From positions 1-32,660 of IMG/VR virus record IMGVR_UViG_3300038974_000315: a stretch of 32,660 bases of DNA. One strand, written 5' to 3'. Numbering within the stretch: position 1 is the stretch's first letter; each line of letters starts with the position of its first letter. This DNA comes from a virus (taxonomy: Duplodnaviria; Caudoviricetes). The notes under the pieces are model-generated. The model was not told where the DNA came from and made no database searches. It was given only the letters and a program-made list of their open reading frames with translations. Below, in pieces: positions 3 through 32,660 of the stretch. The position numbers were made by a program, and so were the translations under genes.

Positions 3-233
3 AAGAATCGAATCATAGAACGTCTCAAGAAAGATGCAACTAAAACATATGGAATACGAGACGCAAAAGGATTTGTTCCTGAACCCGAAACTGTCGAAGA
101 GAAGATGAAAGCACAGCGTCTGATAGAATCAAAGTACATCAGTCTTATAAACGATTATTGTCTGAATAATAACATCATCGATACATCGAATCTTTCAAAG
201 AAACAAGTTGCAGAACTAATCGCAACGTATTGA
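3..233 (+). CDS. Partial CDS, C-terminus of a probable nucleotide (dNMP-type) kinase
   Basis: Frame 3 is open from the window edge to TGA at 231-233. It ends IIDTSNLSKKQVAELIATY, resembling P-loop NMP kinase C-termini. Not in the ORF track. Confidence 0.5.
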   Translation, partial: KNRIIERLKKDATKTYGIRDAKGFVPEPETVEEKMKAQRLIESKYISLINDYCLNNNIIDTSNLSKKQVAELIATY

Positions 234-3773: not shown

Positions 3774-4432
3774 ATAGCGGAATCTATAAAATAACAAATC
3801 AAATAAACAATAAGTTTTATATCGGAAGCGCTATAGACTTTAATAAAAGATTTAGTGACCATGTATGTTCGTTAAACAGAAGAGATCATTATAATAAAAA
3901 GCTTCAAAATGCTTGGAACAAACACGGAAAAGAAAACTTCACTTTCGAAATCATAGAAGAAGTTCTCGACAAATCAAAGCTAATTGAAAGAGAACAACAT
4001 TATCTAGACACATTGAATCCGTGGTATAATGTATGCAAATCTGCAGGAAACACTTTGGGCGCCGATTTTTATAACAGCAAATCATTCAAACAAAAAATGA
4101 GAAAATCTAAAATAGAAAGCGCTTATTATAAAGATGTGCTTTGTAAGCCTCGTTCTGATGAAACAAAAAGAAAAATGAGTGAAGCGCAAAAGGGTCGAAC
4201 TTTAAGTAAAAATCATAAAGCCGCATTAAAAAATGCGTGGAAAAATCGAAACTACTCAGGAGAAAATCATCCATTATACGGTAAACCTAGAACAGACGAC
4301 GTGAAGAAAAAGATAAGTACCACAAAAAAGCTTAGAAAATGCAAGCCTGTAGACAACCTACAGGAAGCGATCTCCTTTATAAAGGAAGTAACAAATGACG
4401 AAAACAATAACGATAGCGGGAAAACAGCATAG
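3770..4432 (+). CDS. GIY-YIG homing endonuclease with NUMOD3 repeats
   Basis: SGIYKITN...FYIGSA, REQHYLD, and SDETKRKMSEA / NHPLYGKPRTDD repeats. Confidence 0.92.
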   Translation: MNSGIYKITNQINNKFYIGSAIDFNKRFSDHVCSLNRRDHYNKKLQNAWNKHGKENFTFEIIEEVLDKSKLIEREQHYLDTLNPWYNVCKSAGNTLGADFYNSKSFKQKMRKSKIESAYYKDVLCKPRSDETKRKMSEAQKGRTLSKNHKAALKNAWKNRNYSGENHPLYGKPRTDDVKKKISTTKKLRKCKPVDNLQEAISFIKEVTNDENNNDSGKTA

Positions 4433-16012: not shown

Positions 16013-16026
16013 TCTTTTTTCAACTG

Positions 16027-16056
16027 TGCGCATTTTTACTAAAAATATGTTAATAT
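16027..16056 (+). promoter_or_regulatory. Putative sigma70-type promoter of the RNA array
   Basis: TGCGCA-N18-TAATAT with extended -10 TG. Predicted start about 16063-16065 coincides with the first RNA unit. Confidence 0.5.
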
Positions 16057-16064
16057 AAATAATG

Positions 16065-16552
16065 AAGGCACTAACAGCAAAACACTTATAAACCTCAGAC
16101 CTCTAATCTGAACTGTTATAAAGTGCCTTGATTGTAGATTCTTTATAAGATGCATACAGCAAACATACTTATTGTGACCATACTCAGGGCGTGTTGGCTT
16201 TCACTCGATAAAGCTCGTAGTACCGCGTTAAGGGCTGCATCTTGAGTTTATCGTTCTTTGACTTTGTAGGCGCATACAGCAATCATACTCTTATGAGCAG
16301 AAGCTCCACGGGGCTTCACCAAGGGTGGTTCCTCTAAAGACCCGTAAAATCCTGCGTTATGGATGGCGCCTAGAGATTATTTATTTTAGACACTCACAGC
16401 AATACTACACTCGTTGCCTTGTTAGCAATACAATCGGTTCGATTCCGATGTTGGCGATGGTCCGCCTGTTACAGTGTCTAGTTTATTTTTGTATTGACCC
16501 TAACAGCAACTCACAAACTTTCTTCTAATGAAAAAGAAAAAAATGGGTCTAG
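16065..16552 (+). ncRNA. Array of five stem-closed RNA units sharing ACAGCAA (candidate Ro60/TROVE partner RNAs)
   Basis: Units 16065-16130, 16147-16244, 16267-16373, 16387-16481 and 16496-16552. Each has a different self-complementary terminal stem, then ACAGCAA-N3-7-ACTY, and ends CTTG or CTAG. Confidence 0.75.
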
Positions 16553-16576
16553 TCCCCTCACACAAAGGAGAAAAGC

Positions 16577-18064
16577 ATGTCTGAAAAACTTCTTCGAGCT
16601 CTTGAAAACGAAACCAACTTCACTCTCACTGAAAATGACGCAGTAGCCAGAAAGACGACAGGTTCAGACCTTCTGAACTTCTTCTCTCTTGCAGGTGCAT
16701 TGCGCGAAAGGTCGGAAGCTGACATCGTCAATCTCTTCGACATCGCATTCTGTGAAAATCCTCGTTTCGCAATGAAAGCTCTGTTCTATTTCAGAGACAT
16801 CCGTGGCGGTCAGGGTGAAAGACGAACCTTCAGAGTAATCCTGAAGCACCTCGCAAACGACTCTTCAACCCGAAACTGGCTGAAGAAGAATCTCAGCCTC
16901 ATCCCTGAGTACGGTAGGTGGGACGATCTGTTCGTCCTGTTCAATACAGATCTCGAAAGAAACGTAGTCGACCTCATCGTCAATCAGCTCAACAAAGACA
17001 TGAGAACTCCAAATCCTTCGATTCTAGCAAAGTGGCTTCCTTCAGAAAACGCTTCTTCAAAGGAAAGCAAGTACCAGGCTTTGAAGCTCATCAGCTATCT
17101 CGGCACTTCTCCTCGTTCATACAGAAAGACTCTTTCATCTCTCCGTAGAAAGATCGACATCGTAGAGAGCAAGCTTTCTGCAGGTGAGTGGAGCGATATC
17201 AACTACGAACGCGTTCCTTCACAGGCTAACGTTCTTTATCGTAAGGCATTCCACCGTCACGATGGAGACCGCTATCGTTCGTTCCTCGAAGCCGTAAAGA
17301 AGGGTGAAAAGACCATCAAGGCGGGAGTGTTGTATCCATACGACATCGTCCGCAAGTGCTTCGATCACGACTGCACTAGGGATAGCCTTGATGCGCTGTG
17401 GAACGCTCTTCCTGACTACCTTGAAGGAACTCAGGAAAACGCCATCGTAGTTACAGATACGTCGGGATCTATGTGCAGCAACAACTATCTCCCACTTTCG
17501 ATCTCTGTTTCGCTCGCGATCTACGCAGCCGAAAGAAACAAGGGAGTATTCCATAACAAGTTCATCACATTCTCGGGTTCTCCTGAACTCCAGACTGTAA
17601 AGGGCCGCACGATCGCCGACAAAGTTCGTAATCTGTCGAAAGCCGACTGGGGTATGAACACCAACGTTGAAGCAGTGTTCGATCTGATCCTAAACACCGC
17701 TATCAAGAATCACCTTCGTAAAGACGAAATGGTAAAGAAGATCTATGTCGTTTCTGACATGGAATTCGATTCTTGCGCAGCTTCAAATAGTGCAAGTAGA
17801 GGGTTGAAAGAAACTCTATTCCAGTCTATCAGAAGGAAGTATCGAAACGCCGGATACGACATGCCTCTTCTCGTGTTCTGGTGTGTAAACGGAAGAAACA
17901 ATCAACACCCAATGTCGATGGATGACAGAGGATTCCTTAACGTTTCTGGAGCTAGCGCAAGCATCTTCACGAAACTCATCAAGAACGAGTTTGCCGACGC
18001 CTATTCGTTCATGATCGATGTCCTTAGTTCTCCACGATACGAAAAGGTAGAGTATAATGGCTAA
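16577..18064 (+). CDS. TROVE-like/vWA protein (DUF2828 family, Ro60-related)
   Basis: TENDA, RDIRGGQGER, YGRWDDL and AKWLP motifs, plus vWA MIDAS DTSGSM, SDMEFD and VFWCV. RBS AAGGAG. Confidence 0.85.
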   Translation: MSEKLLRALENETNFTLTENDAVARKTTGSDLLNFFSLAGALRERSEADIVNLFDIAFCENPRFAMKALFYFRDIRGGQGERRTFRVILKHLANDSSTRNWLKKNLSLIPEYGRWDDLFVLFNTDLERNVVDLIVNQLNKDMRTPNPSILAKWLPSENASSKESKYQALKLISYLGTSPRSYRKTLSSLRRKIDIVESKLSAGEWSDINYERVPSQANVLYRKAFHRHDGDRYRSFLEAVKKGEKTIKAGVLYPYDIVRKCFDHDCTRDSLDALWNALPDYLEGTQENAIVVTDTSGSMCSNNYLPLSISVSLAIYAAERNKGVFHNKFITFSGSPELQTVKGRTIADKVRNLSKADWGMNTNVEAVFDLILNTAIKNHLRKDEMVKKIYVVSDMEFDSCAASNSASRGLKETLFQSIRRKYRNAGYDMPLLVFWCVNGRNNQHPMSMDDRGFLNVSGASASIFTKLIKNEFADAYSFMIDVLSSPRYEKVEYNG

Positions 18065-21501: not shown

Positions 21502-22169
21502 GAAAATTCCACGAAGCGTATGTGAAGTACTTCAATGAATCACCAAAGACTATTCTAGAAATCGGATCAAGAGACGGAGATTCTGCTGAAGACCTAAGAG
21601 CTTTGAGTAATGCGAAAGCCGAGGATGTCTATGTTGTAGAACCTCACCCGGAGTCGTTCAGACGAATCATTCAAAAGTATCCAGGTTTTCATGTGTTTGA
21701 GTTAGCTGTATCGAATGAACCCGGCGTAGTCAGCTTCAACGCGATTCCCTATACGTACAGCCATGGAACCGTTGGAACAAGCTCTCTTCTAAGAAAAAAC
21801 ATGGATTTCATTACGAAAATCGTTCCAAATGCTACTAGTCCAGAGCGCTGGGTCAAAGTCTTAGCTGTCTCGGGTAGAACTATTCTTCAGCTAATAGACC
21901 GTCCAGGAATAGACGCCGTAAAGATTGACGTTGAAGGATTTACCTACGAAGTTCTGAAAAGCTTTGGAGACGATGTGAGATTGCTCAAAGCACTTCATGT
22001 CGAAGTAGAAAAGATTCCTATCTGGGAAAACCAGAAGTACTACGACGATGTAAAAAGACTTCTAGCGTGGTATAACTTCGAAGAGACTTATTATGAAGGA
22101 ATGTTCTGGGTAAACTACTCAACTGGAGAAAAGGGTCAGGGCGATTCAGTCTGGATGAGGAAAGACTAA
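21498..22169 (+). CDS. FkbM-family methyltransferase
   Basis: LEIGSRDG, VEPHP and KIDVEG motifs. Confidence 0.85.
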   Translation: MRKFHEAYVKYFNESPKTILEIGSRDGDSAEDLRALSNAKAEDVYVVEPHPESFRRIIQKYPGFHVFELAVSNEPGVVSFNAIPYTYSHGTVGTSSLLRKNMDFITKIVPNATSPERWVKVLAVSGRTILQLIDRPGIDAVKIDVEGFTYEVLKSFGDDVRLLKALHVEVEKIPIWENQKYYDDVKRLLAWYNFEETYYEGMFWVNYSTGEKGQGDSVWMRKD

Positions 22170-22501
22170 TGGGACAAAAGCTTTTCGTCATAAGAAACGA
22201 TAAATACAGACTCGACATAACTTCCTTTGATGAAAACTATGAGTCTATCAAACAGGGAGAATCTAAGTATAGCTATAGGTTCTCAATCAAGGAAAAGCTG
22301 TCTCAAAAGAAGCCTCTAGAATCCTATGATGCAAACGCTAAAGAAGGGAAGATAGGATTTGATCTTAAACCCCAGCTTCCCTTCGGAGTGTATCTTTATG
22401 CTATAGAACTGATTAGCATAGTCAATGGTAAGAAGATAGACGAGCTAGCTTATGGTTTTATTGAGATTATTCCTGACATCATTGAATCTAATCATCGATA
22501 A
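22169..22501 (+). CDS. Hypothetical protein
   Basis: TAATG coupling to the upstream gene; 110 aa. Confidence 0.6.
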   Translation: MGQKLFVIRNDKYRLDITSFDENYESIKQGESKYSYRFSIKEKLSQKKPLESYDANAKEGKIGFDLKPQLPFGVYLYAIELISIVNGKKIDELAYGFIEIIPDIIESNHR

Positions 22502-22939
22502 AGGCTCCATAGCATACAACTCTATGTCACATTGCAACGCGACAGATTGACCCTCCTCTATTATTCCCTTCTCAATGATTGATTTTATGATGCTGCTATC
22601 ATCGGCGCCCAGAAACGAAAATACGACGTCTTCAGCATTTTTCGTATAATTCGCGACATCTTTCTTTTTTAGTTTCAAATACTTAGAACTCTTCGTCAGC
22701 CATCGGTCGTAGGCGACATAATGTACGGTTGTATAGTAATAAAGCGGATGGTCTGCTAGATAGTTCTTCAAATGAAGATAGTTCAGAGCAAGATACTCTT
22801 GAACTTTATTCTTAGCAGATCTATAGTTCCCTGAATAGACTAGTCTTCGTCCGTGCTTAGACGGAATCAGTAGATTATTTACGCTGCCCTTTAGTTCGTC
22901 TAGCTTAATCAATAAGCTCACTGTCTTGATTGGTTTCAT
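22445..22939 (-). CDS. RusA-like Holliday junction resolvase
   Basis: SVNN near the N-terminus and DVANYTKNAEDVVF...DDSSI catalytic pattern. Confidence 0.7.
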   Translation of the reverse strand: MKPIKTVSLLIKLDELKGSVNNLLIPSKHGRRLVYSGNYRSAKNKVQEYLALNYLHLKNYLADHPLYYYTTVHYVAYDRWLTKSSKYLKLKKKDVANYTKNAEDVVFSFLGADDSSIIKSIIEKGIIEEGQSVALQCDIELYAMEPLSMIRFNDVRNNLNKTIS

Positions 22940-23279
22940 CCTCTTGCAAAAGCTCCTCTACGTTGAATAATCCTGAAAGAAATAAAGCGTTTGCAATAGT
23001 TTGAATGGAGATGTGCGGAAGTTCCGTCAGACACTCCTGATCGAGAGCCTCCACGATTTCATGCATGAGAGTTTTCCTCTTCTTGTTTTCAGGTATGTCT
23101 CGGTTGATGTAAATCGTTTGAGTCAGTGCATCGCAGAGCCCCGAGAAGTTCTGCAAGTTCTCGCCAAAAAGATTTTTCACATCGTCGAGATGTGAAGTTC
23201 CTTCATAAGTCTTGAAAAGCTCGCCAACAGAGATCTGCTTTACTTCGTAAGTAATACCCATGATCGGAACTGTTTTCAT
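22905..23279 (-). CDS. Zincin-like (ImmA/IrrE-like) protein with HExxE variant motif
   Basis: GLC...IYIN...TLMHEIVEAL. Confidence 0.55.
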   Translation of the reverse strand: MKTVPIMGITYEVKQISVGELFKTYEGTSHLDDVKNLFGENLQNFSGLCDALTQTIYINRDIPENKKRKTLMHEIVEALDQECLTELPHISIQTIANALFLSGLFNVEELLQEDETNQDSELID

Positions 23280-23311
23280 GATTGACTCTCCCTGAACGAT
23301 TTGATAAAACT

Positions 23312-23340
23312 ATTCTATAACATTAGCGAAAGATTGTAAA
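23312..23340 (-). promoter_or_regulatory. Sigma70-type promoter
   Basis: TTTACA(ATC)-N17-TAGAAT. Confidence 0.65.
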
Positions 23341-23343
23341 CAC

Positions 23344-23373
23344 AAAAAAGAGACGGCATTTTCACACCGTCTC
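23344..23373 (-). terminator. Intrinsic terminator
   Basis: GAGACGG/CCGTCTC stem followed by T6 on the minus strand. Confidence 0.75.
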
Positions 23374-23390
23374 CTCTTTGTGAAATCTCG

Positions 23391-23585
23391 TTACTTCTTT
23401 GTACGACCGTTACGAACCTCAAGGATGTTCTTCTTCTCGGAACGAACTACATCCGCAATAGCCTTGAGCTTCTTGCGAAGTCTTCCACCCGCTGAGTTGA
23501 CTTCCTTGTCGTAGAACTTGGGAACATCTTCATTCAGTGCTTCTTGCGCGATCCTAATGATTTCTTCGTATGCTTCTTTGCCCAT
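23391..23585 (-). CDS. Histone H1-like (Hc1-type) small basic protein
   Basis: KFYDKEVNSAGGRLRKKL resembles the KFxxKGNKAAGTRARK family. RBS AGGAGG. Confidence 0.6.
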   Translation of the reverse strand: MGKEAYEEIIRIAQEALNEDVPKFYDKEVNSAGGRLRKKLKAIADVVRSEKKNILEVRNGRTKK

Positions 23586-23600
23586 ACTTTCCTCCTGTGA

Positions 23601-24014
23601 TTAATCTTCCTTTAAGAAGATTTGAATAACCGACGATGGCGTTGCAATAACATCTTTGAACTTGTAATCGACTAACCCGATACTATACAGCACTGCAAAA
23701 GCACGATACGCCGAACTTCGCGTCAAAGACTCATCTGCGATTGTTTCGAATAGTCTTTCTACTTCTCTAAGCAAAATGGGTCTATCTGCGATTCGGAGAA
23801 CCTGATAGAGAGTTGTCGTAGGTCCCTTTACATCGAAAATAAGATTTTCATCTTTATCGCATGACATTTTTAGAAAATCACTGAACGAACCTTCGCCGTC
23901 TCTAATGAAAGCCATAAAATCTGACATGATTGCATCTTCATTTGTTTTGAAATGAGAAATCATGCTCTTTCTAAATGCTTCAAACCTTTTAGATGCTTTC
24001 TTTTTTCCTCGCAC
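23601..24014 (-). CDS. Hypothetical protein (possible winged-helix C-terminus)
   Basis: ORF with GTG at 24014 preferred by its spacing from AGGAGG. Confidence 0.6.
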   Translation of the reverse strand: MRGKKKASKRFEAFRKSMISHFKTNEDAIMSDFMAFIRDGEGSFSDFLKMSCDKDENLIFDVKGPTTTLYQVLRIADRPILLREVERLFETIADESLTRSSAYRAFAVLYSIGLVDYKFKDVIATPSSVIQIFLKED

Positions 24015-24023
24015 AGACACCTC

Positions 24024-24737
24024 CTAGAAATGCTCGAATGCAAATGTTGGTTGAATGTATTCAGAAACTAGTCGTTTCTTCGATTCTGCAATAAGTTTTT
24101 CAATGGCCGAGAACTTCTTTTCAAGCGATCCTCTGCCTTTAGTGGTCTTTTTGGTAATCACAACTTCGCCACTTATATCTTCTAGTTTCGGGAAACCAAG
24201 CTCTTGTCTTATTTTGTTAGGTGTAATGTCGGTATTATAATAATTCGACGAAAATCTGTCCATTGAGATAGTAGCTGTTGTAAATGAATTGGATGATAAA
24301 GTAGAATCAGGATCGATCCAGCATGTGTTTCTAGCGACCATAGGTTTATCCTTTACAAAGTCTTCTATTTGACGCCTAAGAGTTTTTGAAAGATGATTGA
24401 TTGCCATTACAAATCGTGTGTTTATAAAATGGCTATCCAGCGACATTGAAAATCGAAATTCGTTTTCGAATTCAACACGAGAAACATGTTCTGAACACTG
24501 TAGAAACTCTTTAGTGGGAAGATGAACTACTTCTATTCCAAAACGAAATCCATAGTCGTAGTCATCATGATCTACAACAACTCGAGTTATCCTGAATCCG
24601 TACATTTGAAACACATCTTCTAGCTCTTTTTCTACTGAAATCTGAAGACACTGTTTCAGGATGTGACGAGGATCGTTTGAGGACGTATCGATCTTTTCTC
24701 CAAGAAATGTTGTTATCTTGGGATAATCATGAGCCAT
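24024..24737 (-). CDS. Hypothetical protein
   Basis: 237-aa ORF with TAATG coupling; ends in TAG. Confidence 0.7.
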   Translation of the reverse strand: MAHDYPKITTFLGEKIDTSSNDPRHILKQCLQISVEKELEDVFQMYGFRITRVVVDHDDYDYGFRFGIEVVHLPTKEFLQCSEHVSRVEFENEFRFSMSLDSHFINTRFVMAINHLSKTLRRQIEDFVKDKPMVARNTCWIDPDSTLSSNSFTTATISMDRFSSNYYNTDITPNKIRQELGFPKLEDISGEVVITKKTTKGRGSLEKKFSAIEKLIAESKKRLVSEYIQPTFAFEHF

Positions 24738-25249
24738 TACTTACTCGATTTAGATGGAATGTTTCCTACAGTGACAGTAGGAAGTCTCTTCATGATTTCG
24801 AGCATGGTGTCTTTCAGGTCAGCCATGTGAGCATTGAGAAGCTTCTGGTTCTCGGCATCTCTCTTTTCAATGAGATCGCGAACTTGTTCATTGTACTTCT
24901 TAGAAAGCTCGTTTTCCTTTTCTTTAACCTGAACATCGACCATTCTCTTCTCATGTTCGCGAAGCTGTTCCGCCTTCTCTTTGTCGAGAGCGATAAGGTG
25001 ATTGATGTCGATCTTCTCACGATTGAACTGAGCATCCATTTCCTTACGCTTGAGCTCATTTTCAGTCTGAATCTTCTTTAGATCGATTTCAAGATCGCGC
25101 TTCTCTTCCTTGAGCTGATCAATGATTTCCTGTAGATTTGAGATTTTATCCTGGAGGGATTCTTGGCGTTCTTCTTCGTCGCCGATTGAAGAGTCTAGAT
25201 GATTGATAACACGTTCGAGTTTAGTTCCAAGTTCTTTGTTAATCCACAT
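24737..25249 (-). CDS. Coiled-coil hypothetical protein
   Basis: E/K/L heptad-rich; RBS AGGAGG; extended -10 TGGTATAAT at 25280-25288. Confidence 0.75.
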   Translation of the reverse strand: MWINKELGTKLERVINHLDSSIGDEEERQESLQDKISNLQEIIDQLKEEKRDLEIDLKKIQTENELKRKEMDAQFNREKIDINHLIALDKEKAEQLREHEKRMVDVQVKEKENELSKKYNEQVRDLIEKRDAENQKLLNAHMADLKDTMLEIMKRLPTVTVGNIPSKSSK

Positions 25250-25309
25250 AAATGCATCCTCCTAAGGGATATTAGTTACATTATACCACATGCAGAACGT
25301 TTTATACTG

Positions 25310-25382
25310 TGTCCGGAGAGAGATTCGAACTCTCACTTTCTGCGTTCTAAGCGCAGTGACTCTGCCGTTGGCCTACCCGGAC
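25310..25382 (-). tRNA. tRNA-Leu(TAG), short variable loop
   Basis: Cloverleaf; anticodon arm CTGCG-CTTAGAA-CGCAG; T loop TTCGAAT. Confidence 0.85.
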
Positions 25383-25383
25383 G

Positions 25384-25460
25384 TGGTGTTCCTGGTCAGA
25401 TTCGAACCGACACTTTTCCGCTCTTGAGGCGGATGACTCTACCAATTGGCCTACAGGAAC
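25384..25460 (-). tRNA. tRNA-Leu(CAA), short variable loop, CCA encoded
   Basis: Anticodon arm TCCGC-CTCAAGA-GCGGA. Confidence 0.85.
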
Positions 25461-25463
25461 ATG

Positions 25464-25544
25464 CCTCGCTGGCAGGATTCGAACCTGCAGTTTCAGTTTC
25501 CATTACGATTCCGACGCTTAGAAGGCGTGGTCGTCTACAGCGAG
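25464..25544 (-). ncRNA. D-armless tRNA-like RNA with TCT (Arg) anticodon loop
   Basis: Acceptor CTCGCTG/CAGCGAG, perfect T arm and ACGC-CTTCTAA-GCGT. No D arm; long 3' connector. Confidence 0.65.
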
Positions 25545-25568
25545 ATTAAACTAATGCGAAAGTTCTAT

Positions 25569-26045
25569 TTATTTTCGTTTCTTAAATCTATTCTCTTCTA
25601 TTCTCTTTTTAAAAGCTTCTGCTTTTATCTTGCGTTCTTCTTTTTCTCTAGAAGCTTTGAGAATCTTCACTTCTTTTTCAGCATTTTCATTTTCTAAACG
25701 TAAGCGTTCTTGATACTGAGATTCTTGATCGGCTCTCAACTGACGAGCGAACTCAAGTTCTCTTTCGCGTCGAAGCTTTTCTTTTCGCTCGATTTGCTCG
25801 TTTTCTTTTATGATGTTTCTATTGATTGTGTCGAGCTCTACTTCTAGAATCTCTTTTGCATTTTTGGCGCGAACAAGAGCTTCTATGCTTGACTTTAACC
25901 AATTTTCCCATCCTTCTTGGAGAGATGCATCATCTTTAATCGAAATCAAATAATCTTTTAACTCGCGTTCTTTTTTAGAGATTCCACGTTCTAAGATTTT
26001 TAGTTCCGACTGTCGATTGTATTTTCTCTCAAGAGATTCTCTCAT
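25569..26045 (-). CDS. Coiled-coil hypothetical protein
   Basis: 158-aa E/K/R-rich ORF. Confidence 0.7.
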   Translation of the reverse strand: MRESLERKYNRQSELKILERGISKKERELKDYLISIKDDASLQEGWENWLKSSIEALVRAKNAKEILEVELDTINRNIIKENEQIERKEKLRRERELEFARQLRADQESQYQERLRLENENAEKEVKILKASREKEERKIKAEAFKKRIEENRFKKRK

Positions 26046-26048
26046 TGA

Positions 26049-26249
26049 TTATTTACGGAGATCTGATTCTCCACCCTTTCCGATTACGTCGCTGTCTGCA
26101 ACTTTAGAAAGATCATCTGAGAGTCTCCCAGCGCCGACAGGAATGTTCATCGCCCGACTTCTATTGAGATACTCTTTTTCTTGCTGTTTCAAGCCCTGAA
26201 TGAGCTCCTGTATTGACTTACTCACGTCGTTTTTCCCTTCGTACTTCAT
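26049..26249 (-). CDS. Small hypothetical protein
   Basis: ORF in a tightly packed minus-strand operon; ATG at 26249 (MKYEGK). Confidence 0.55.
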   Translation of the reverse strand: MKYEGKNDVSKSIQELIQGLKQQEKEYLNRSRAMNIPVGAGRLSDDLSKVADSDVIGKGGESDLRK

Positions 26250-26439
26250 TATCACTACCTTCTTCTACTTCAAACCCTTGAAGTCTTGAATTGCACCCGT
26301 ACGCGTCATTGTATTCATACTCTGATGCTGCTACGGGATCCGCGATTGCTGTGTTATACTTACAAACCTTGCCACAACCCATGCAACCTGGAAGATAAAC
26401 CAAGCTAACCTGATTCTTGTGCTTCAACACTTGTCCCAT
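26218..26439 (-). CDS. Small Cys-containing hypothetical protein
   Basis: RBS AAGGAG; CMGCGKVC motif. Confidence 0.6.
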   Translation of the reverse strand: MGQVLKHKNQVSLVYLPGCMGCGKVCKYNTAIADPVAASEYEYNDAYGCNSRLQGFEVEEGSDNEVRREKRRE

Positions 26440-26453
26440 GCAAATCTCCTTTA

Positions 26454-26624
26454 TTACTTCTTGATTTTATCTATTACTTTTTCTACAAGGTCTTTCGCTT
26501 CTTCTAGCTTTTCTTTTCCTTCTTGAATGAGCGGCTCTGTCTTGTTGGCATTTCTACGCATGTAGAGAATACCCCATACAAAGCAAGCCGCTAAGAGAAT
26601 GATTCCAAAAATAACCCATTTCAT
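26454..26624 (-). CDS. Small membrane protein (56 aa)
   Basis: MKWVIFGIILLAACFVWGILYMRRN...KIKK; RBS GAGGTG. Below the ORF-track cutoff. Confidence 0.7.
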   Translation of the reverse strand: MKWVIFGIILLAACFVWGILYMRRNANKTEPLIQEGKEKLEEAKDLVEKVIDKIKK

Positions 26625-26661
26625 AAAACACCTCTAAGAGAAGTATTTTTGCAATTTTATG

Positions 26662-26732
26662 AGCCCACTCCCGGAATCGAACCGAGATCAACTGATTACA
26701 GGTCAGTCGCACTACCATTGTGCTAAGCAGGC
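26662..26732 (-). tRNA. tRNA-Thr(TGT) with C33
   Basis: Anticodon arm ACTGA-CCTGTAA-TCAGT; GCC acceptor start. Confidence 0.8.
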
Positions 26733-26849
26733 ATGTACTACTAAATTACGAAGATTTGCGCGGTTTTTATGAAAAGCTGGAAACTCTTGATTTCTATGTA
26801 GCCCAAGGGTTTTACGGTGTTTACCCACCAACCAGCTACCATCAAAAAC

Positions 26850-26878
26850 ATTATACCATAACAGAAGATGATTGTACA
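26850..26878 (-). promoter_or_regulatory. Sigma70-type promoter
   Basis: TGTACA(ATC)-N17-TATAAT with extended TG. Confidence 0.75.
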
Positions 26879-26886
26879 ATGTTATG

Positions 26887-26959
26887 AGCAACCAGTGAGA
26901 ATCGAACTCACGTAAGACTGTTTTGCAGACAGCCGGCTAAGCCATTCACCCATGGTTGC
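26887..26959 (-). tRNA. tRNA-Cys(GCA)
   Basis: Loop CTGCAAA; U73. Confidence 0.9.
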
Positions 26960-26962
26960 ATG

Positions 26963-27033
26963 AGCCAGATCCGGGAATCGAACCCGAATTTTCTCCTTAC
27001 CAAAGAGACGGTCTACCATTGAACTAATCCGGC
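26963..27033 (-). tRNA. tRNA-Thr(GGT)
   Basis: Loop TTGGTAA. Confidence 0.9.
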
Positions 27034-27036
27034 ATG

Positions 27037-27108
27037 CGCCCTTGAGAGGATTCGAACCTCCAATGAATGGTTCGTAGCCATTTAGTTTATCCATTAGCTT
27101 ACAAGGGC
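27037..27108 (-). tRNA. tRNA-Arg(ACG)
   Basis: Loop CTACGAA. Confidence 0.9.
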
Positions 27109-27111
27109 ATG

Positions 27112-27198
27112 CGGAAGGTAGAGGATTCGAACCTCTGCAGGTGTTACCCTGGCCAGAGTTTAGCAAACTCGCACCATTCCAGACTCGGTCAACCTTCC
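27112..27198 (-). tRNA. tRNA-Ser(GCT)
   Basis: Loop TTGCTAA, long variable arm, G73. Confidence 0.9.
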
Positions 27199-27204
27199 AT
27201 TGAT

Positions 27205-27713
27205 AGACTGAGCTAGTCTATAATTTATTTATAATTTACTTTAATTCAATCGTCTTGGTTTTTGAAGCCATGTTTCTGTTCATTGTCACTTTGACAATTC
27301 CGTCTTCAAAAGAAGCAGAAATAGTATTCTCATCAACATCGTTCGGCAGCATATATTTTACAGAAAAGTCTCTATAAGCAATTTGCTTAGAAATCCAACG
27401 ACGGTTTTCTTCTGATTTCTCTTCTTTCTTACCTGATACTGTTAGAACATTATCATTTACAAAAATTTCAATGTCTTCTTTTGAATATCCTGCAAGAGCA
27501 AATTCAAATTCCAACTTTCCATCTTTCGTAGTTGAGATATTTGTGAACGGATATTTGTCCAAGTGAAATATAGATCTAGAAAAATTGAAGAAGTTGTCAA
27601 AGAAGTCATCATCAATAAATTTCTCAACAAGATCATTAGCCTTTACTAGTTGAACCATAATAGCATTCTCCTTTCAATGAGACCCGAAGCATCTCGTTAG
27701 ACTAGCTCAGTCT
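27205..27713. repeat. Perfect 16-bp inverted repeat flanking the hsp20 gene
   Basis: AGACTGAGCTAGTCTA at 27205-27220 and TAGACTAGCTCAGTCT at 27698-27713. Confidence 0.85.
27236..27658 (-). CDS. Small heat-shock protein (Hsp20/IbpA family)
   Basis: YPFTNI...FALAGYSKEDI...LTVSG...IAYRDF...ASFEDGIV. Confidence 0.92.
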   Translation of the reverse strand: MVQLVKANDLVEKFIDDDFFDNFFNFSRSIFHLDKYPFTNISTTKDGKLEFEFALAGYSKEDIEIFVNDNVLTVSGKKEEKSEENRRWISKQIAYRDFSVKYMLPNDVDENTISASFEDGIVKVTMNRNMASKTKTIELK

Positions 27714-27714
27714 G

Positions 27715-27797
27715 CGGTAGGAGTGAGACTCGAACTCACAAAGCTTTTACGCCTACTAGCTTTCGAAACTAGCCCCTCATCCAGCCGGATCCCTACC
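27715..27797 (-). tRNA. tRNA-Ser(CGA)
   Basis: Loop TTCGAAA, long variable arm, atypical D region ATCCGGCTGGATGAGG. Confidence 0.85.
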
Positions 27798-27798
27798 A

Positions 27799-27978
27799 TT
27801 ATGGTGCTATTCCGTCTTCCCATTCTTCTAAGCTCTTGAGCGAGTCGAACATTGTTTTTCCAATAAGAAAAAAGAGGACTTGTTCTAAATACCACTGCTT
27901 ATGATGTCCTTCATCGTTTACTAAACCTCTAACTAAAAGATCGGTCAGATGTTCTTGCTCATACTCTTCAATGCGCAT
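27799..27978 (-). CDS. Small phage protein (59 aa)
   Basis: MRIEEYEQ...DEGHHKQWYLEQ...WEDGIAP; RBS AAGGAG. Not in the ORF track. Confidence 0.7.
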   Translation of the reverse strand: MRIEEYEQEHLTDLLVRGLVNDEGHHKQWYLEQVLFFLIGKTMFDSLKSLEEWEDGIAP

Positions 27979-27998
27979 GCTATTTTCTCCTTTTTATG

Positions 27999-28085
27999 CG
28001 GTAAGTGTAGGATTCGAACCTACGTAACCCGAAGGTGTACACGACCTTTCCAGGATCGCCTCTTACCAGACTAGAGTAACTTACC
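27999..28085 (-). tRNA. tRNA-Ser(GGA)
   Basis: Loop CTGGAAA, long variable arm. Confidence 0.9.
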
Positions 28086-28090
28086 AAATG

Positions 28091-28173
28091 CGGAAGGAGA
28101 GGGACTCGAACCCCCAAGCCTGTCACAGCCAGCCGCTTTCAAGGCGGTGTCCTCATCCAGCCGGATTCCTTCC
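28091..28173 (-). tRNA. tRNA-Ser(TGA)
   Basis: Loop CTTGAAA, long variable arm, same atypical D region as Ser(CGA). Confidence 0.85.
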
Positions 28174-28281
28174 ATGTGACAGATAACAGCTTTTAGAGTG
28201 CTATTTACTGTCGTATTTCATCTCGCCCTGATAACCCCTTGAAAGGGTTAAAGCACCTGCTTTTTAACTAGAAACAGGAAA

Positions 28282-28575
28282 CTAAGACCACATCTTGAAT
28301 CTCTTGCAAACTTCTCTGTCTTCACCTGATAATGGTTCTGTCGCGATTGACGTATAACCCATATCATAATCGGGTTCGTAAAACATATATGTTTTTAAAC
28401 CATGACTCTTTAAATATTCATTCGTTTTTACAAGATGTTCTTCGTTCTTGACTTCAAAGAGCACGATACTGTTAATACTCTTAGGTTTATCAGACTGCAA
28501 ACACGCATGGGCTGTTTGAATGATCTGAGCATGCAGTGGAATATCCTTACGGATAAAACAGTAGGTGTATTCCAT
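28282..28575 (-). CDS. Pth2-like peptidyl-tRNA hydrolase domain protein
   Basis: YCFIRKDI...QTAHAC...IVLFEVKNEEHL...FYEPD...TSIATEP pattern of the PTH2 fold. Start reassigned to 28575 (TAATG coupling). Ends in TAG. Confidence 0.7.
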   Translation of the reverse strand: MEYTYCFIRKDIPLHAQIIQTAHACLQSDKPKSINSIVLFEVKNEEHLVKTNEYLKSHGLKTYMFYEPDYDMGYTSIATEPLSGEDREVCKRFKMWS

Positions 28576-28907
28576 TACTTTAACCTTGCGTCTGTTTTTA
28601 TTTGTTCCCATGCTATTTTTATTTCCTTTGAAGCTACAAGCTCGCCAAAAGGTTCGAGCAATTCGCACTCATAAGATTTATATCCTATTTTCCATGATGC
28701 GTCCTTCAAACATTGCCACGGATTTGCGCCATTATCGATTTTAATCTGTTTCGTGACAGGAGAAAATCCTCTATCGAATGGCTTTGATCTCAAAATGTTG
28801 TACAACATCATGTGAGACGAAGTAGGTTTTCCGCCATTCTTTAAATAGTTCTTCCAGCTTTCAATGATCTTTAAATAATCTTCTTTATTCTCAATAAAAT
28901 AACTCAT
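28575..28907 (-). CDS. Hypothetical phage protein
   Basis: 110 aa (HMMLYNILRSKPFDRGFSP); its RBS AAGGAG lies inside a hairpin. Confidence 0.75.
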   Translation of the reverse strand: MSYFIENKEDYLKIIESWKNYLKNGGKPTSSHMMLYNILRSKPFDRGFSPVTKQIKIDNGANPWQCLKDASWKIGYKSYECELLEPFGELVASKEIKIAWEQIKTDARLK

Positions 28908-28910
28908 TTT

Positions 28911-28961
28911 ATTCTCCTTATTCTAGAGGTTAGCAACCAATCCTTTAGCAATAAAGAGAAT
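28911..28961 (-). promoter_or_regulatory. RBS-sequestering hairpin
   Basis: ATTCTCTTTATT pairs with AATAAGGAGAAT (12 bp, one G-U), plus inner CTAAAGG/CCTCTAG. Confidence 0.7.
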
Positions 28962-28962
28962 T

Positions 28963-29007
28963 TTATGGCGGTCTAATCTATGAAAAGCCCTAGATCTTGT
29001 ATTCCAT
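28963..29007 (-). other. Putative leader peptide with two in-frame amber codons: MEYKI*GFS*IRPP-ochre
   Basis: AAGGAG-N8-ATG GAA TAC AAG ATC TAG GGC TTT TCA TAG ATT AGA CCG CCA TAA. Confidence 0.65.
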
Positions 29008-29164
29008 GTTTATTGCTCCTTTGATTTATGATAATCTCAATGTCATACTTTCGTGAAAGTTCTCTTAAATCTTCAAATATTTTTTTATCTTTCTCATATC
29101 GATTGTAGTTATAATCTAGCCCTAATATTGTAGGATCGTAATCAATATAATCAATAAACTTCAT
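28973..29164 (-). CDS. Small hypothetical protein
   Basis: RBS AAGGAG; 63 aa; ends in TAG inside the leader region. Confidence 0.6.
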   Translation of the reverse strand: MKFIDYIDYDPTILGLDYNYNRYEKDKKIFEDLRELSRKYDIEIIINQRSNKHGIQDLGLFID

Positions 29165-29180
29165 GCTATCTCCTTAAAAT

Positions 29181-29255
29181 TGGTGCCCATGGTGAGATTC
29201 GAACCCACTCAAAATCGTTTTAGAGACAATCGCTCTACCACTGAGCTACATGGGC
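29181..29255 (-). tRNA. Amber suppressor tRNA (anticodon CTA), CCA encoded
   Basis: GCCCATG acceptor, canonical D and T arms, anticodon arm ATTGT-CTCTAAA-ACGAT. Confidence 0.9.
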
Positions 29256-29258
29256 ATG

Positions 29259-29329
29259 CTGGCGGACTAGGATTCGAACCTAGAATAGCTGAGTCAGAGT
29301 CAGCTGTGATGCCGTTTCACTATTCGCCA
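29259..29329 (-). tRNA. tRNA-Gln(CTG)
   Basis: Loop CTCTGAC; U1-A72. Confidence 0.9.
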
Positions 29330-29334
29330 ATCTG

Positions 29335-29405
29335 TTGAGATACCAGGATTCGAACCTGGATTAGAAGAGTCAAAGTCTTCTGACCTGCCGTTGGTCGATA
29401 TCTCA
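29335..29405 (-). tRNA. tRNA-Gln(TTG)
   Basis: Loop CTTTGAC. Confidence 0.9.
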
Positions 29406-29409
29406 ATAA

Positions 29410-29458
29410 TGGCGGTTTTTAATCAGGATCCGCCAACCTGTAAGACAGCGGTTTACCA
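29410..29458 (-). ncRNA. Small pseudoknot-forming RNA ending in CCA
   Basis: CAGG-T-TGGCGG-AT-CCTG-ATTAAAAA-CCGCCA, between the promoter and the first tRNA. Confidence 0.45.
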
Positions 29459-29468
29459 AACAAGTACT

Positions 29469-29497
29469 ATATTAACAAAAAATGAGTCGATTGTACA
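29469..29497 (-). promoter_or_regulatory. Sigma70-type promoter of the tRNA operon
   Basis: TGTACA(ATC)-N17-TAATAT with extended TG. Confidence 0.7.
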
Positions 29498-29502
29498 TCG
29501 AT

Positions 29503-29811
29503 TTAATCGCTATTTGTCAAAGAAGATCCAGCAACAACAATCCCGTTTATTCCTGATCCTTGAACGAGATCTCCCAGTAGTGCTATCTTCTTGCCCTCAA
29601 CGTTTGTAAGTATTGAAGAAGCCATTAGAATCCCAGTATGACCACAACTAGAAGGACATGGCGTCCCTATGACTGCCGCCAGTCTTCCTTCATCAAACAC
29701 TAGAGTCTGAGGAGGATTTCCAACTACTCCCGAAACAGGTCTAGGAGGGCCCTGATGATTTGAACATGTACCTACCCAAGAATCTCCTATTCTGACAATA
29801 GGTTTAGGCAT
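29503..29811 (-). CDS. PAAR-like spike tip protein
   Basis: PIVRIGD...C..H, RLAAVIG, CGHTG and KIALLGD repeats. Confidence 0.8.
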   Translation of the reverse strand: MPKPIVRIGDSWVGTCSNHQGPPRPVSGVVGNPPQTLVFDEGRLAAVIGTPCPSSCGHTGILMASSILTNVEGKKIALLGDLVQGSGINGIVVAGSSLTNSD

Positions 29812-30698
29812 TATAGAATACTTCCGTTGATGTCATCCCAACCAAAATAATCCATTACTTCCTGACCACCATGAGCTAACATCCAGTCTTTAGGCTTATT
29901 TGTTACTGTAACTTCATTGCCAGCAGTGATGTAGTTCATGATCTTTATTCCAGCTTGATAACGAGGGACAGTAGGATGACCATTATTGAATCCGCCGCCG
30001 GCATTTATGAAATCATGAAGACGGTCTAGCAAACCTCTTCCTTCCCAATGAGCGCCGCTACCCTGATGATAATGAATACAAAACTTATCTTCATCATGAA
30101 GAGAGGTTGTGTCGACGATGCTCAAGATTTCATCTGCATCTTCTGTTCCCATGAGATATGACGTCGTATTTGAATAGCGCTGAGAATAATACGGATAACG
30201 ATTAGAAAAAGCAGTTACCATCATGTCAATTTCAGGAGCAGCAACATCAGGAGCGTTCTTTTTTACAATCGTTGTTCCAGAAAACTGGAAAAATGGATCA
30301 GATGTCGTTCCATTTCCTGGCCATGTGTATCTCCAGGCGGTCGAGATAGACCGTAAATCGCCTAAGCTGATGTCATCACCCGTTGTCAACGGCATAATAA
30401 ACCATGGAACATCTGGAAGTCCTGCAGAAGCAGGAAAAGTCATACAATGCCTATAAAGAACCGCCAGAGTTAGAAATCCAAAGTTCCTAGACCATCTGTA
30501 TCGTAGGCCGGCATTTTGCCATAGATTCTGCCATGTTTTATACGTTTCTTCTGCTGTCGTAACTTGATCTAGTTCTGTATCGACTAAAGTGTGCGCTGTG
30601 GTTTTCTGACCAGAAGTCCACGATTGAGCTTCTATTTGGGCGTCCCAATAAGCCTGTATAGTTGATTTCATTGTAGAGAAGTCTTTTAGGTAGGGCAT
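29811..30698 (-). CDS. Hypothetical (possibly virion) protein
   Basis: 295-aa ORF with RBS GGAGG, coupled to the PAAR gene. Confidence 0.75.
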   Translation of the reverse strand: MPYLKDFSTMKSTIQAYWDAQIEAQSWTSGQKTTAHTLVDTELDQVTTAEETYKTWQNLWQNAGLRYRWSRNFGFLTLAVLYRHCMTFPASAGLPDVPWFIMPLTTGDDISLGDLRSISTAWRYTWPGNGTTSDPFFQFSGTTIVKKNAPDVAAPEIDMMVTAFSNRYPYYSQRYSNTTSYLMGTEDADEILSIVDTTSLHDEDKFCIHYHQGSGAHWEGRGLLDRLHDFINAGGGFNNGHPTVPRYQAGIKIMNYITAGNEVTVTNKPKDWMLAHGGQEVMDYFGWDDINGSIL

Positions 30699-30712
30699 GT
30701 TTTTACCTCCAT

Positions 30713-30781
30713 TGGCTTACCTCAGTACCGCCCTGAGCAAACCGCAGTTATGAGCCGCAGCTGTGCACTTGCACGTAAGCC
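30713..30781 (-). ncRNA. Non-canonical tRNA-like RNA with CAT anticodon
   Basis: GGCTTAC/GTAAGCC acceptor, GTGC-AAGT-GCAC arm, TGCGG-CTCATAA-CTGCG, and CTCAG-GGCGGTA-CTGAG T-like arm. Confidence 0.65.
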
Positions 30782-30785
30782 GTAT

Positions 30786-30860
30786 TAGCGGGCCACAGAG
30801 TTGAACTGTGCTATTCCAACTTATGAGGATGGCATCTGCTCTCCGGCCGATTCACCCGCT
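30786..30860 (-). tRNA. Atypical tRNA-Met(CAT)
   Basis: AGCGGGT/GCCCGCT acceptor, loop CTCATAA, T arm CACAG-TTCAACT-CTGTG. Confidence 0.65.
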
Positions 30861-30868
30861 ATAAACTA

Positions 30869-31144
30869 TTACCAACGCTTAATGTGCGCTTTGTCCATCA
30901 TAGACATCGCCACGTTGTCATTTCCATTTACTGCTTTATGTGTAAACAGATTGATAAACGATTCGCCAAGATGACAGTCATTGCAGTTTCTATCAACCAT
31001 CATTACAACCTTGATGTGCTGCTTTGATTTTGCAAGTTCGTTATTTGCGATTCGACCATCATCAATAAAACGAACAACAACGTTCAACATGAAACCCAAT
31101 GCAAATCCAATCATAATGAGTGGAATCTTATCTTTATTCAACAT
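30869..31144 (-). CDS. Membrane-anchored protein with CxxCH motif
   Basis: N-terminal hydrophobic helix; RNCNDCHLG; RBS GGAGG. Confidence 0.7.
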   Translation of the reverse strand: MLNKDKIPLIMIGFALGFMLNVVVRFIDDGRIANNELAKSKQHIKVVMMVDRNCNDCHLGESFINLFTHKAVNGNDNVAMSMMDKAHIKRW

Positions 31145-31145
31145 G

Positions 31146-31685
31146 CTACATCCTCCCGAGGACGTTTTTTAGTTTTCCAGAATAGATGTCTCTATACTCT
31201 GGAGTAAAAGAATGATACGACGCGATGTTTTTTGAATACCTTTTATTTATGTTGATAATCTTACACGCAACTTCGACATTCTTGTACACACTAAATAAAT
31301 CTTGTTTGTTTTTAGTAAATCTATTTTTCCATGTCGGCCAGTTGATTTGCATCAAACCAACATCGTCGCATTGCTTATTATGAGCTTTAGGGTCGAACCT
31401 TGATTCGACATAAGCGATTGCAACAAGCTTTTCTGGTTGAATCTTGTAATACCTTGCATTTTCTGCAATAGCAAGAGCAATCTTTTTCTTAGTCGTCGGA
31501 TTTACTCTTGCGCCAGTGCTGTCTATCATTTCTTCTACTGCGAGAACCTCCGGGTGATTCAACGGACTCCCAAGCGAGAACGATTTGTCCTCTTTCATGA
31601 TAAACATGTATGTGAGTAAACCGATACATGCTATAATCACTAGTTTTCTCATTTCGGTGGGTTCCTCCCATCGTTTACTTTTCAT
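31146..31685 (-). CDS. Lytic transglycosylase (SLT domain) with N-terminal membrane anchor
   Basis: AIAYVESRFDPKA, GLMQIN and SYHS motifs. Confidence 0.88.
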   Translation of the reverse strand: MKSKRWEEPTEMRKLVIIACIGLLTYMFIMKEDKSFSLGSPLNHPEVLAVEEMIDSTGARVNPTTKKKIALAIAENARYYKIQPEKLVAIAYVESRFDPKAHNKQCDDVGLMQINWPTWKNRFTKNKQDLFSVYKNVEVACKIININKRYSKNIASYHSFTPEYRDIYSGKLKNVLGRM

Positions 31686-31694
31686 TCTCCTCTC

Positions 31695-31723
31695 ATAGTA
31701 TCATAAATCAATAAGATTGTAAA
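31695..31723 (-). promoter_or_regulatory. Sigma70-type promoter
   Basis: TTTACA(ATC)-N17-TACTAT with extended TG. Confidence 0.6.
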
Positions 31724-31731
31724 CCAAAATG

Positions 31732-31804
31732 AGCGGGTAGAGGGAATCGAACCCTCATCCATTGGTTGGAAGCCAATGATAATAAGCCATTATACGATAC
31801 CCGC
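31732..31804 (-). tRNA. tRNA-Gly(TCC)
   Basis: GCG acceptor start, loop CTTCCAA, U73. Confidence 0.92.
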
Positions 31805-32464
31805 GTTTAAATCCTCTAATGTCGATTTTATTCCATTGGGCGTTCTATAGAACAGCGAGAACTTCAAATCTCTAGCCATTGGAAAAACTTCGTACAGTTG
31901 TTTTGCAGCATCCTCTGGATTAAGAATGGGTTCCCATTTGGTATTTCTTGCACCTGGGCGTCTGAATCGACCTGACAGAAGAAGCCTGAAAAACAATACA
32001 TCACAAACTGTGCCTTCAAGAAACGGAGTCCACCGAGAAAATCCTGCAACCCATTTAAGAGGCGACATGTCATTCAAAAACGATTCAGCAGTTTTTCTAT
32101 TCAAAAAATCACAGGTGCCAAAATATAATCCATCGAAATTCGATGTGTTTATCAGGATGTTCTTTAGCTTCACACGACTTATGTCTTTTAAGGCTTGTAT
32201 TCTATCTTGCTGACCATGCACTGCGAAGTATCCTATTTTTAGTCGACCATCTGCGCCCTGATCAATCCCATAGTTCAATGTCGCAGCTAATCCATCTGCT
32301 GTTCCAAAAACATAGTACGAAAACAGCGGATCATGCCCAGACTCAACTCTATCTAGCTCTATCTTTAGTTCATCAAAAAATGGTTTTACAGACTCCCAAT
32401 GCCACTTATCCCACTGAGCCTCGTAGATTTTAATGATGTATTTTTTATCGGTTCTATCTTTCAT
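31790..32464 (-). CDS. CHAT/caspase-fold-like protein
   Basis: GYFAVHG...GLYFGTC His-Cys dyad spacing; WVAGF. Confidence 0.55.
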   Translation of the reverse strand: MKDRTDKKYIIKIYEAQWDKWHWESVKPFFDELKIELDRVESGHDPLFSYYVFGTADGLAATLNYGIDQGADGRLKIGYFAVHGQQDRIQALKDISRVKLKNILINTSNFDGLYFGTCDFLNRKTAESFLNDMSPLKWVAGFSRWTPFLEGTVCDVLFFRLLLSGRFRRPGARNTKWEPILNPEDAAKQLYEVFPMARDLKFSLFYRTPNGIKSTLEDLNAGIV

Positions 32465-32601
32465 AACGACATGGCATAACTATTGCATGCTATTCTGGCA
32501 GCTTCTTCTGTGTCATAAGGACCATAGACGTTTGACCATGTTTCATCATAAAAATACCATTTATTGTCTCTAACATCAAAGAAAACAGGATCCTTGTACA
32601 T
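32461..32601 (-). CDS. Small hypothetical protein (46 aa)
   Basis: MYKDPVFF...WYFYDETWSNVYGPYDTEEAA; RBS AAGGAG; ATGA overlap with the next gene. Confidence 0.65.
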   Translation of the reverse strand: MYKDPVFFDVRDNKWYFYDETWSNVYGPYDTEEAARIACNSYAMSL

Positions 32602-32638
32602 CGAAATCGTCTCCTTTGTAACGTTCGACTGTGAGAGG

Positions 32639-32660
32639 AGATCGGAAGAGCGTCGTGTAG
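32639..32660 (+). other. Illumina TruSeq adapter (assembly artefact)
   Basis: AGATCGGAAGAGCGTCGTGTAG at the contig end. Confidence 0.97.

Follow-up and report, generated by a model that had tools for sequence, protein, structure and literature searches.

Why should a phage that uses the standard genetic code carry a nonsense suppressor tRNA? The question is raised by a locus in which a tRNA with anticodon CUA lies upstream of a short open reading frame (ORF) with two in-frame TAG codons, followed by a hairpin over the ribosome-binding site of a two-gene operon. The locus is part of a 32,660-base virus record, which was analysed as a whole and is called the window below. We find that the amber-gated leader is real, conserved and widespread, and that it is probably a case of leader-controlled translation with nonsense suppression as the input. 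The fuller reading, to which we give a probability of roughly 0.7 from sequence comparisons, is that the leader acts as a read-through switch for the helical and Pth2-fold genes behind it, with tRNA clean-up as the output.

The locus and its genetic code

The window holds 13 tRNAs (ARAGORN) and genes for DnaE, Pol A, DnaB, homing endonucleases, a PAAR protein and a transglycosylase. All 45 called genes, the last two included, are read whole with translation table 11, and they end in TAA (30), TGA (9) or TAG (6). Amber-recoded (code 15) phages would show many TAG-broken genes; within this 32.7-kb part of the phage genome there are none of that kind, and the phage uses the standard code. Reading TAG as Gln gave no convincing gene extension in the window, and we rejected a product fused through the TAG at 24026-24024, which no test supported. 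No second amber gate and no HD gene of the gated family described below was found in the window. Promoter and terminator predictions were uninformative (10 promoter-like sites against 8.3 expected; 0 terminators), and an Rfam search over 22000-32660 matched tRNAs alone.

Several features of the window stand apart from the gate. DnaE (4395-8372, plus strand) has an N-terminal uracil-DNA-glycosylase-like domain, and a separate 729-aa Pol A lies beside it. A 565-nt gap (16013-16577, plus strand) precedes a TROVE-like RNA-binding gene (phrog_850, DUF2828/DUF7788) and contains five ACAGCAA-centred repeats, three of them exactly 120 nt apart (16144, 16264, 16384), with hairpins between. These may be copies of one RNA element, or else tRNA-like molecules that partner the TROVE protein. 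Two serine-type tRNA-like sequences (about 28185-28095 and 27797-27710, minus strand), in whose anticodon loops we read UGA and CGA by eye, were called by neither ARAGORN nor Rfam; relatives carry tRNA-Ser at those places.

An assembly error is excluded because contig X2, which comes from another study, covers the whole stretch and shows no difference in tRNA, leader or hairpin; its seven differences all lie within the Pth2-like gene. The source of the independent near-identical sequence is a biogas fermenter metagenome. No RNA-derived dataset carrying the stretch was found, and the RNA-labelled run X10 is probably DNA.

A preliminary description of this DNA, made from its letters alone, had listed a series of minus-strand elements, and every one of them lies where it had been placed. 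With the flanking tRNAs, they are:

29334..29405, minus strand: tRNA-Gln(UUG), first of the upstream tRNA run (ARAGORN, Rfam RF00005)
29258..29329, minus strand: tRNA-Gln(CUG), immediately before the CUA tRNA in 11/11 close loci
29181..29255, minus strand: amber suppressor-type tRNA, anticodon CUA; 75-nt canonical cloverleaf with encoded CCA
28973..29164, minus strand: 63-aa ORF ending in TAG; an accessory insertion, no Pfam or PHROG match
29016..29021, minus strand: leader Shine-Dalgarno (SD) sequence AAGGAG
28963..29007, minus strand: leader ORF, MEYKI-TAG-GFS-TAG-IRPP-TAA
Within the leader, minus strand: ambers 28992-28990 and 28980-28978; Pro-Pro 28971-28966; TAA 28965-28963
28911..28961, minus strand: anti-SD hairpin, 1 nt past the leader, burying AAGGAG at 28919-28914
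28575..28907, minus strand: gene for a 110-aa all-helical protein (phrog_22448)
28282..28575, minus strand: gene for a 97-aa Pth2-fold protein, in TAATG overlap with the 110-aa gene and ending in TAG

The hairpin (28961-28911) has 12 uninterrupted pairs and three more beyond a bulge, with a predicted energy of -18.8 kcal/mol (z -4.52; none of 200 shuffles was equally stable). ARAGORN labels the CUA tRNA 'Pyl' from its anticodon alone. A tRNA-Pyl has a shortened D loop and variable loop and a non-canonical T loop; the tRNA here is a canonical cloverleaf that scores 65.1 bits against RF00005, and a pyrrolysine system was rejected. The leader and the Pth2-like gene share their first 10 nt (29007-28998 and 28575-28566, minus strand), probably by chance; the identity is lost in relatives.

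Leader conservation and gate designs in relatives

The close set is made up of the 15 sequences whose Pth2-like protein shows about 80% identity or higher; four of them are too short upstream. The preliminary description had proposed to search upstream of homologues for in-frame TAGs, a PP-stop and an anti-SD hairpin, and the pattern is present in all 11 testable close loci. Each keeps the SD, the ATG, TAG-G-[FY]-[TS]-TAG, the prolines and a stop, with a tail after the second amber of IRPP, ACRPP, VCRPP, VCIPP or RCRPP and then TAA or TGA. The hairpin over the next ribosome-binding site begins 1-2 nt past the leader in all 11 (-14.1 to -21.8 kcal/mol), and a CUA tRNA lies upstream of the leader, after tRNA-Gln(CUG), in all 11. 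A chance origin was rejected, as 0 of 183 control ORFs show such a leader.

The variation among these loci is of a coding type. Third positions change (GGC/GGA, ACA/ACG, CCG/CCA, CCA/CCT/CCC, AGA/AGG, TAA/TGA), and length varies by whole codons, with 2, 4, 5 or 6 before the first amber and 4 or 5 after the second. Such wobble changes, and indels that preserve the frame, point to translation of the leader. In all 11 loci it is a short upstream ORF with its own SD, conserved as coding, as sought in an attenuator.

Two further elements of the preliminary description were not borne out as parts of the switch. It had noted that the 63-aa ORF, if its TAG were suppressed, would also run through the hairpin; the frame does lead to the TGA at 28906-28904, but of the 10 other close loci L002 alone carries a homologue, which stops at the first amber in the leader frame, and the ORF was rejected as an important part. 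The TAG that ends the Pth2-like gene is likewise not conserved (TAG in 7 and TAA in 6 of 13 close loci) and was set aside. By this comparison both are incidental, and read-through of the 63-aa ORF is a possible one-amber bypass in the window genome.

The spacing between leader and stem fits a ribosome at the end of the leader. Counted from the A-site start of the final stop, the first base of the anti-SD strand lies 4-5 nt further on in each of the 11 close loci; counted from the post-Pro-Pro position, it lies between -3 and +8 nt in 29 of 36 leader loci. A stable stem that buries the SD is thus predicted within the ribosome footprint of the pause site. In a footprint model that masks RNA to +13, and by that construction partly favours the downstream ribosome position, the cost of freeing the SD was lower at the downstream position in 36/36 leader loci. 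For the window it was 8.4 kcal/mol with free RNA, 12.5 with a ribosome at the second amber and 4.8 with one at the final TAA, the last being the part of the stem that the model leaves in place.

At 30-50% identity the same gate logic recurs in several forms, which we sorted as follows:

Class A, a leader with TAG...PP-stop before the hairpin: L004, L006, L008, L012, L016, L034, L040, L043, L046, L047
Class B, TAG and then a RAPP/RGPP/RDPP/RSPP/GPP leader running into the hairpin: L005, L009, L011, L015, L041, L042, L051, L072, L116
Class C, TAG a few codons past the SD-ATG of the Pth2-like gene itself: L014, L017, L018, L019, L053, L056, and (TAG at codon 3-4) RsoM2USA, ME3, BF, Arash, pT24, XacN1, Xoo-sp13, RAS14, GAP32, Kaldavass and LR756511
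Class D, M-TAG-...-SS-TAA leaders without prolines: L054, L059, L062

A leader and an in-gene amber occur together in L005, L012, L040 and L041. The carriers of the gate include jumbo phages in culture, XacN1 among them. In several class C records the gated gene is unannotated or its start was called late. Many class C loci have an HD-like family fused or adjacent with an amber of its own, near the start in L053, L056, L058 and L064 and at codon 47 in BF, GAP32 and Kaldavass; in ME3 and Arash the HD gene is ungated and follows the gated gene. In pEa_SNUABM_50, whose Pth2-like match is 100% identical to that of BF, 21 kb separate the helical and Pth2-like genes, and the helical gene is preceded by a TAG leader and hairpin of its own. 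In L010 the leader carries TGA and a UCA tRNA comes right before it, where the related L006, L008 and L043 combine TAG leaders with CUA tRNAs; on the sequences, this co-switch of stop and anticodon is one event. A tmRNA lies within 3 kb of six class C loci (L017-L021, L056).

Other observations were made at these loci. In L017, an SD-Met-Thr-amber start (L017:4784, plus strand) flanked by the gated Pth2-like gene and by two CUA tRNAs opens a 150-codon frame without NCBIfam match, possibly a fourth gated family. In L049 the frame before the helical gene (about 60-217, plus strand) ends in RSPP at the hairpin with no in-frame TAG, and the Pth2-like gene has its own amber. XacN1 ORF365 (L070:2820-3491, plus strand) and its RAS14 counterpart (L107:2054-2665, plus strand) match the helical family weakly in their C-terminal half and adjoin an HD-Pth2 fusion; L046 fuses helical and HD domains. 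The XacN1 domain fused N-terminally to the Pth2-like domain was tried as a member of the helical family and rejected, as it is HD-like instead (weak E-values). In L072 and L073 the gated module sits in assemblies labelled Chloroflexia and Armatimonadota, perhaps as a prophage or a binned phage.

An automated gate test was applied to 62 gene-family loci, left after removal of 14 duplicates and seven loci with short upstream sequence. It found a TAG gate in 43, a TGA gate in one and a TAA gate in none, counts that overstate independence since the loci are related and the test was written after the patterns had been seen. Applied to 183 other ORFs from these loci, the direct test scored one TAG, one TGA and one TAA, and the leader test scored none. 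Of the 18 loci that failed, 12 are gated by eye, one is truncated and five are ungated: RaK2, Hallingskeid, Myrna, ScoobyDoobyDoo and a frameshifted copy in L074. Myrna and ScoobyDoobyDoo have a CUA tRNA beside the gene yet no credible gate; RaK2 and Hallingskeid have neither a gate nor a match to the CUA tRNA pattern. The pattern did match in 11 of 13 gated whole genomes searched, the exceptions being G006 and LR756511, and it also missed the annotated tRNA of ME3, which makes a missing match soft evidence. A 3' purine, which favours suppression of a stop codon, is present at 80 of the 83 gate ambers, taken from 57 loci picked by eye, compared with 6 of 15 terminal TAGs.

The two-amber gate proposed in the preliminary description thus finds strong support in the conserved leader, its coding-type variation, the fixed spacing from PP-stop to stem and the linked suppressor tRNA, and is further backed by the TGA/UCA co-switch and the convergent placement of in-gene TAGs in other phages. 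The stall motif stands in part. The PP-stop is present in the window and the close loci, and the RAPP-type motif is not (IRPP in the window; CRPP, CIPP or IRPP in the close set); RxPP does occur in the distant L011, L015, L016 and L041.

Gated proteins, mechanism and rival readings

The 97-aa protein is confidently modelled (pLDDT 95.8) with a Pth2 fold (TM 0.73-0.81), and the top 12 Foldseek rows are Pth2 structures. Across the family, 29 of 40 members touch PF01981; the window protein scores 16.3 bits against a cut-off of 23 and has no NCBIfam match. Invariant in the family are R9, D11, Q20, H23, F65-E-P-D69, G73 and R87. Alignment to 2zv3, 1rlk and 24bt shows that the Lys of the GK motif is replaced and that the Asp/Thr region lies beyond the aligned stretch; we take this Lys to be a catalytic Pth2 residue, in a presumed catalytic set of Lys, Asp and Thr. 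An FxEPDxDxG motif presumably stands in place of the Pth2 DAG motif, and the proteins of RaK2 and Hallingskeid have lost FxEPD. The available text of three papers (PMC11202043, PMC3488237, PMC13023423) holds no usable statement on Pth2 catalytic residues or PTRHD1 activity. The peptidyl-tRNA recycling named in the preliminary description as the output is thus matched by the modelled fold and not by the GK Lys, and a peptidyl-tRNA hydrolase role, read from the fold, is putative.

The 110-aa protein is all-helical in its model (pLDDT 92.2), matches phrog_22448 (unknown function) and has 479 relatives among 50%-identity cluster representatives. Its model had no fold match among 48,161 chains (best Z 3.4), only uncharacterised phage proteins in BFVD and no usable match in the Atlas; a single-sequence locus search with the protein gave no match. 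The HD family matches HD and CCA-enzyme models weakly and has no solved relative.

We propose the following mechanism. Ribosomes would initiate at the leader SD-ATG, between the CUA tRNA and the hairpin-blocked operon. Termination at either UAG would leave the ribosome short of the hairpin, and the stem would stay shut. If the suppressor tRNA reads both UAGs, the ribosome would pause at Pro-Pro-UAA, where termination is slow, and hold the 5' strand of the stem. The hairpin would be opened and the SD freed, the helical protein would be made, and the Pth2-fold protein would follow through TAATG coupling. The input would be the contest of charged suppressor tRNA with release factor 1 (RF1), and two ambers would sharpen the threshold. 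Other phages would use the same ON-upon-read-through logic with one-amber PP-stop or RxPP leaders, or with a TAG inside the Pth2-fold or HD-domain gene; the in-gene ambers of class C fix the sign, since their product would be made only upon read-through. That leader translation, suppression, pausing and hairpin opening act jointly in this way seems to us highly probable from the conservation described above.

We read the tRNA as the reporter and the gated genes as the output because we see no further targets for the suppressor: across all loci, direct TAG starts number 34 and belong nearly all to the Pth2-like or HD families, and no recoded programme is seen. The output would most likely be a tRNA 3'-end clean-up kit, with ester hydrolysis by the Pth2 fold and end healing by the HD domain, deployed once phage tRNAs work or termination fails. 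For the enzyme activity and purpose of this output, the least certain part, we would put the odds just short of even.

An unlikely alternative keeps the same gate and turns its output on its input, the gated proteins damping the suppressor so that read-through stays at a fixed level, much as RF2 is kept steady by prfB frameshifting. The Pth2 fold would deacylate the suppressor, or the HD or helical protein would disable or bind it. This would agree with the physical linkage of module and suppressor over great distance, with the loss of FxEPD in two phages that have neither gate nor detected suppressor, and with an active-site region that differs from that of peptidyl-tRNA hydrolases. However, with dampers as the sole gated genes the circuit would have no other output, and the 46 distinct suppressor tRNAs, with widely varying acceptor stems and discriminator bases, offer no obvious shared handle.

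Less probable again, and compatible with the proposed mechanism, is that the signal is a loss of RF1 activity, caused by a phage inhibitor, an antibiotic or a host defence; the suppressor would be a constant probe, and the output would rescue the peptidyl-tRNA that failed termination leaves behind. The tmRNA genes near L017-L021 and L056, the two gated genomes without a suppressor match and the report that read-through yields non-stop complexes (PMC8012679, partial text) would suit it. But a ribosome merely stalled at an amber would neither reach the hairpin nor make the directly gated proteins, and the TGA/UCA co-switch binds the gate to the tRNA.

The preliminary description had called the locus a genetic-code-state switch. 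This stands for the level of read-through and fails for recoding, given that 45/45 called genes of the 32.7-kb window are whole in table 11. The same count weighs against a positive-feedback code switch, in which the gated proteins would promote suppression (for example by blocking RF1) and unlock a recoded late programme, as do the near restriction of the direct TAG starts to two gated families and XacN1, where two CUA tRNAs and no suppressor targets among 18 amber stops were reported (PMC5852040, partial text). XacN1 ORF364 starts SD-Met-Lys-amber. Code-change modules and stop-gated late genes have been proposed for recoded phages (10.1101/2021.08.26.457843, partial text); here we hold such a switch to be improbable.

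Most improbable is an untranslated leader acting as RNA structure alone: an outer stem of UAGGG at the first amber with CCNUA at the stop does form with 5/5 pairs in 10/11 close loci (4/5 in the window) and a small inner 4-pair stem is whole in 6/11, but the SD, ATG, whole-codon indels and wobble variation go unexplained, the inner stem is broken in 5/11, distant loci keep TAG and PP without UAGGG, and direct in-gene ambers require translation. RNA pairing may share in the conservation of the leader, and a leader-internal stem may exist as well; it leaves the SD, the reading frame and the designs of distant loci unaccounted for.

Beyond this locus, many standard-code phages might run a dedicated stop-codon regulon, with the suppressor tRNA as signal and three protein families, of the Pth2 fold, the HD domain and a new helical fold, acting back on tRNAs or termination, a suggestion to which we lend tentative support at somewhat less than even odds. 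Read-through of placed UAG or UGA codons would then switch these families on and form a code-state circuit without a described counterpart, an equally tentative point. The gate gives a possible reason for the nonsense suppressor tRNAs of phages with the standard code, and it would be a natural case, in two architectures, of a stop codon serving as a regulatory input. It also draws attention to genes of well-studied jumbo phages that are unannotated or have a wrong start, brings three uncharacterised tRNA-related protein families to light and would supply genetic-code engineering with a small natural sensor of amber suppression.

Comparison with known systems

In secM-secA and ermCL-ermC, stalled leader ribosomes open RBS hairpins. 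Together with the RAPP-like ApdA, ApdP and ApcA (PMC12992588, partial text), these attenuators resemble the phage leader, a short upstream ORF on which a ribosome, once paused, would be in position to melt the anti-SD stem. RAPP-like arrest peptides have a C-terminal R-x-P-P with an irreplaceable Arg, and our distant loci end in RAPP, RGPP, RSPP, RDPP or RPPP, motifs that support arrest according to the available part of the same paper, in which 'phage' and 'stop codon' do not occur. Unlike these systems, the phage leader takes as its input an in-frame stop that would decide arrival at the pause site, and the window motif is IRPP-stop, not RxPP. Our full-text literature search, which covered few subscription papers, returned no description of an amber-gated leader.

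The prfB gene is autoregulated through an in-frame UGA that is escaped by +1 frameshift. As there, expression would report poor termination at an internal stop; the phage escape differs in using a cognate suppressor tRNA encoded next door, its gate is a leader or N-terminal amber in several families, and its product is not a release factor.

The gated 97-aa protein is similar to the Pth2 family (PF01981; AF2095, MJ0051, Bit1) in fold and in an RxD..Q..HA N-terminal motif; unlike it, the phage protein is shorter, has the GK Lys replaced and scores below curated cut-offs. A jumbo-phage PTH2 was noted as a rescue enzyme in PMC7824862, the available text of which does not mention amber gating or contain the word 'suppressor'.

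In recoded phages (code 15 or 4), too, a suppressor tRNA has been proposed to time genes with in-frame stops (10.1101/2021.08.26.457843, partial text). Their in-frame stops are scattered through structural and lysis genes. The phages described here differ in using the standard code, with single placed ambers that would act as gates in three small tRNA-related families.
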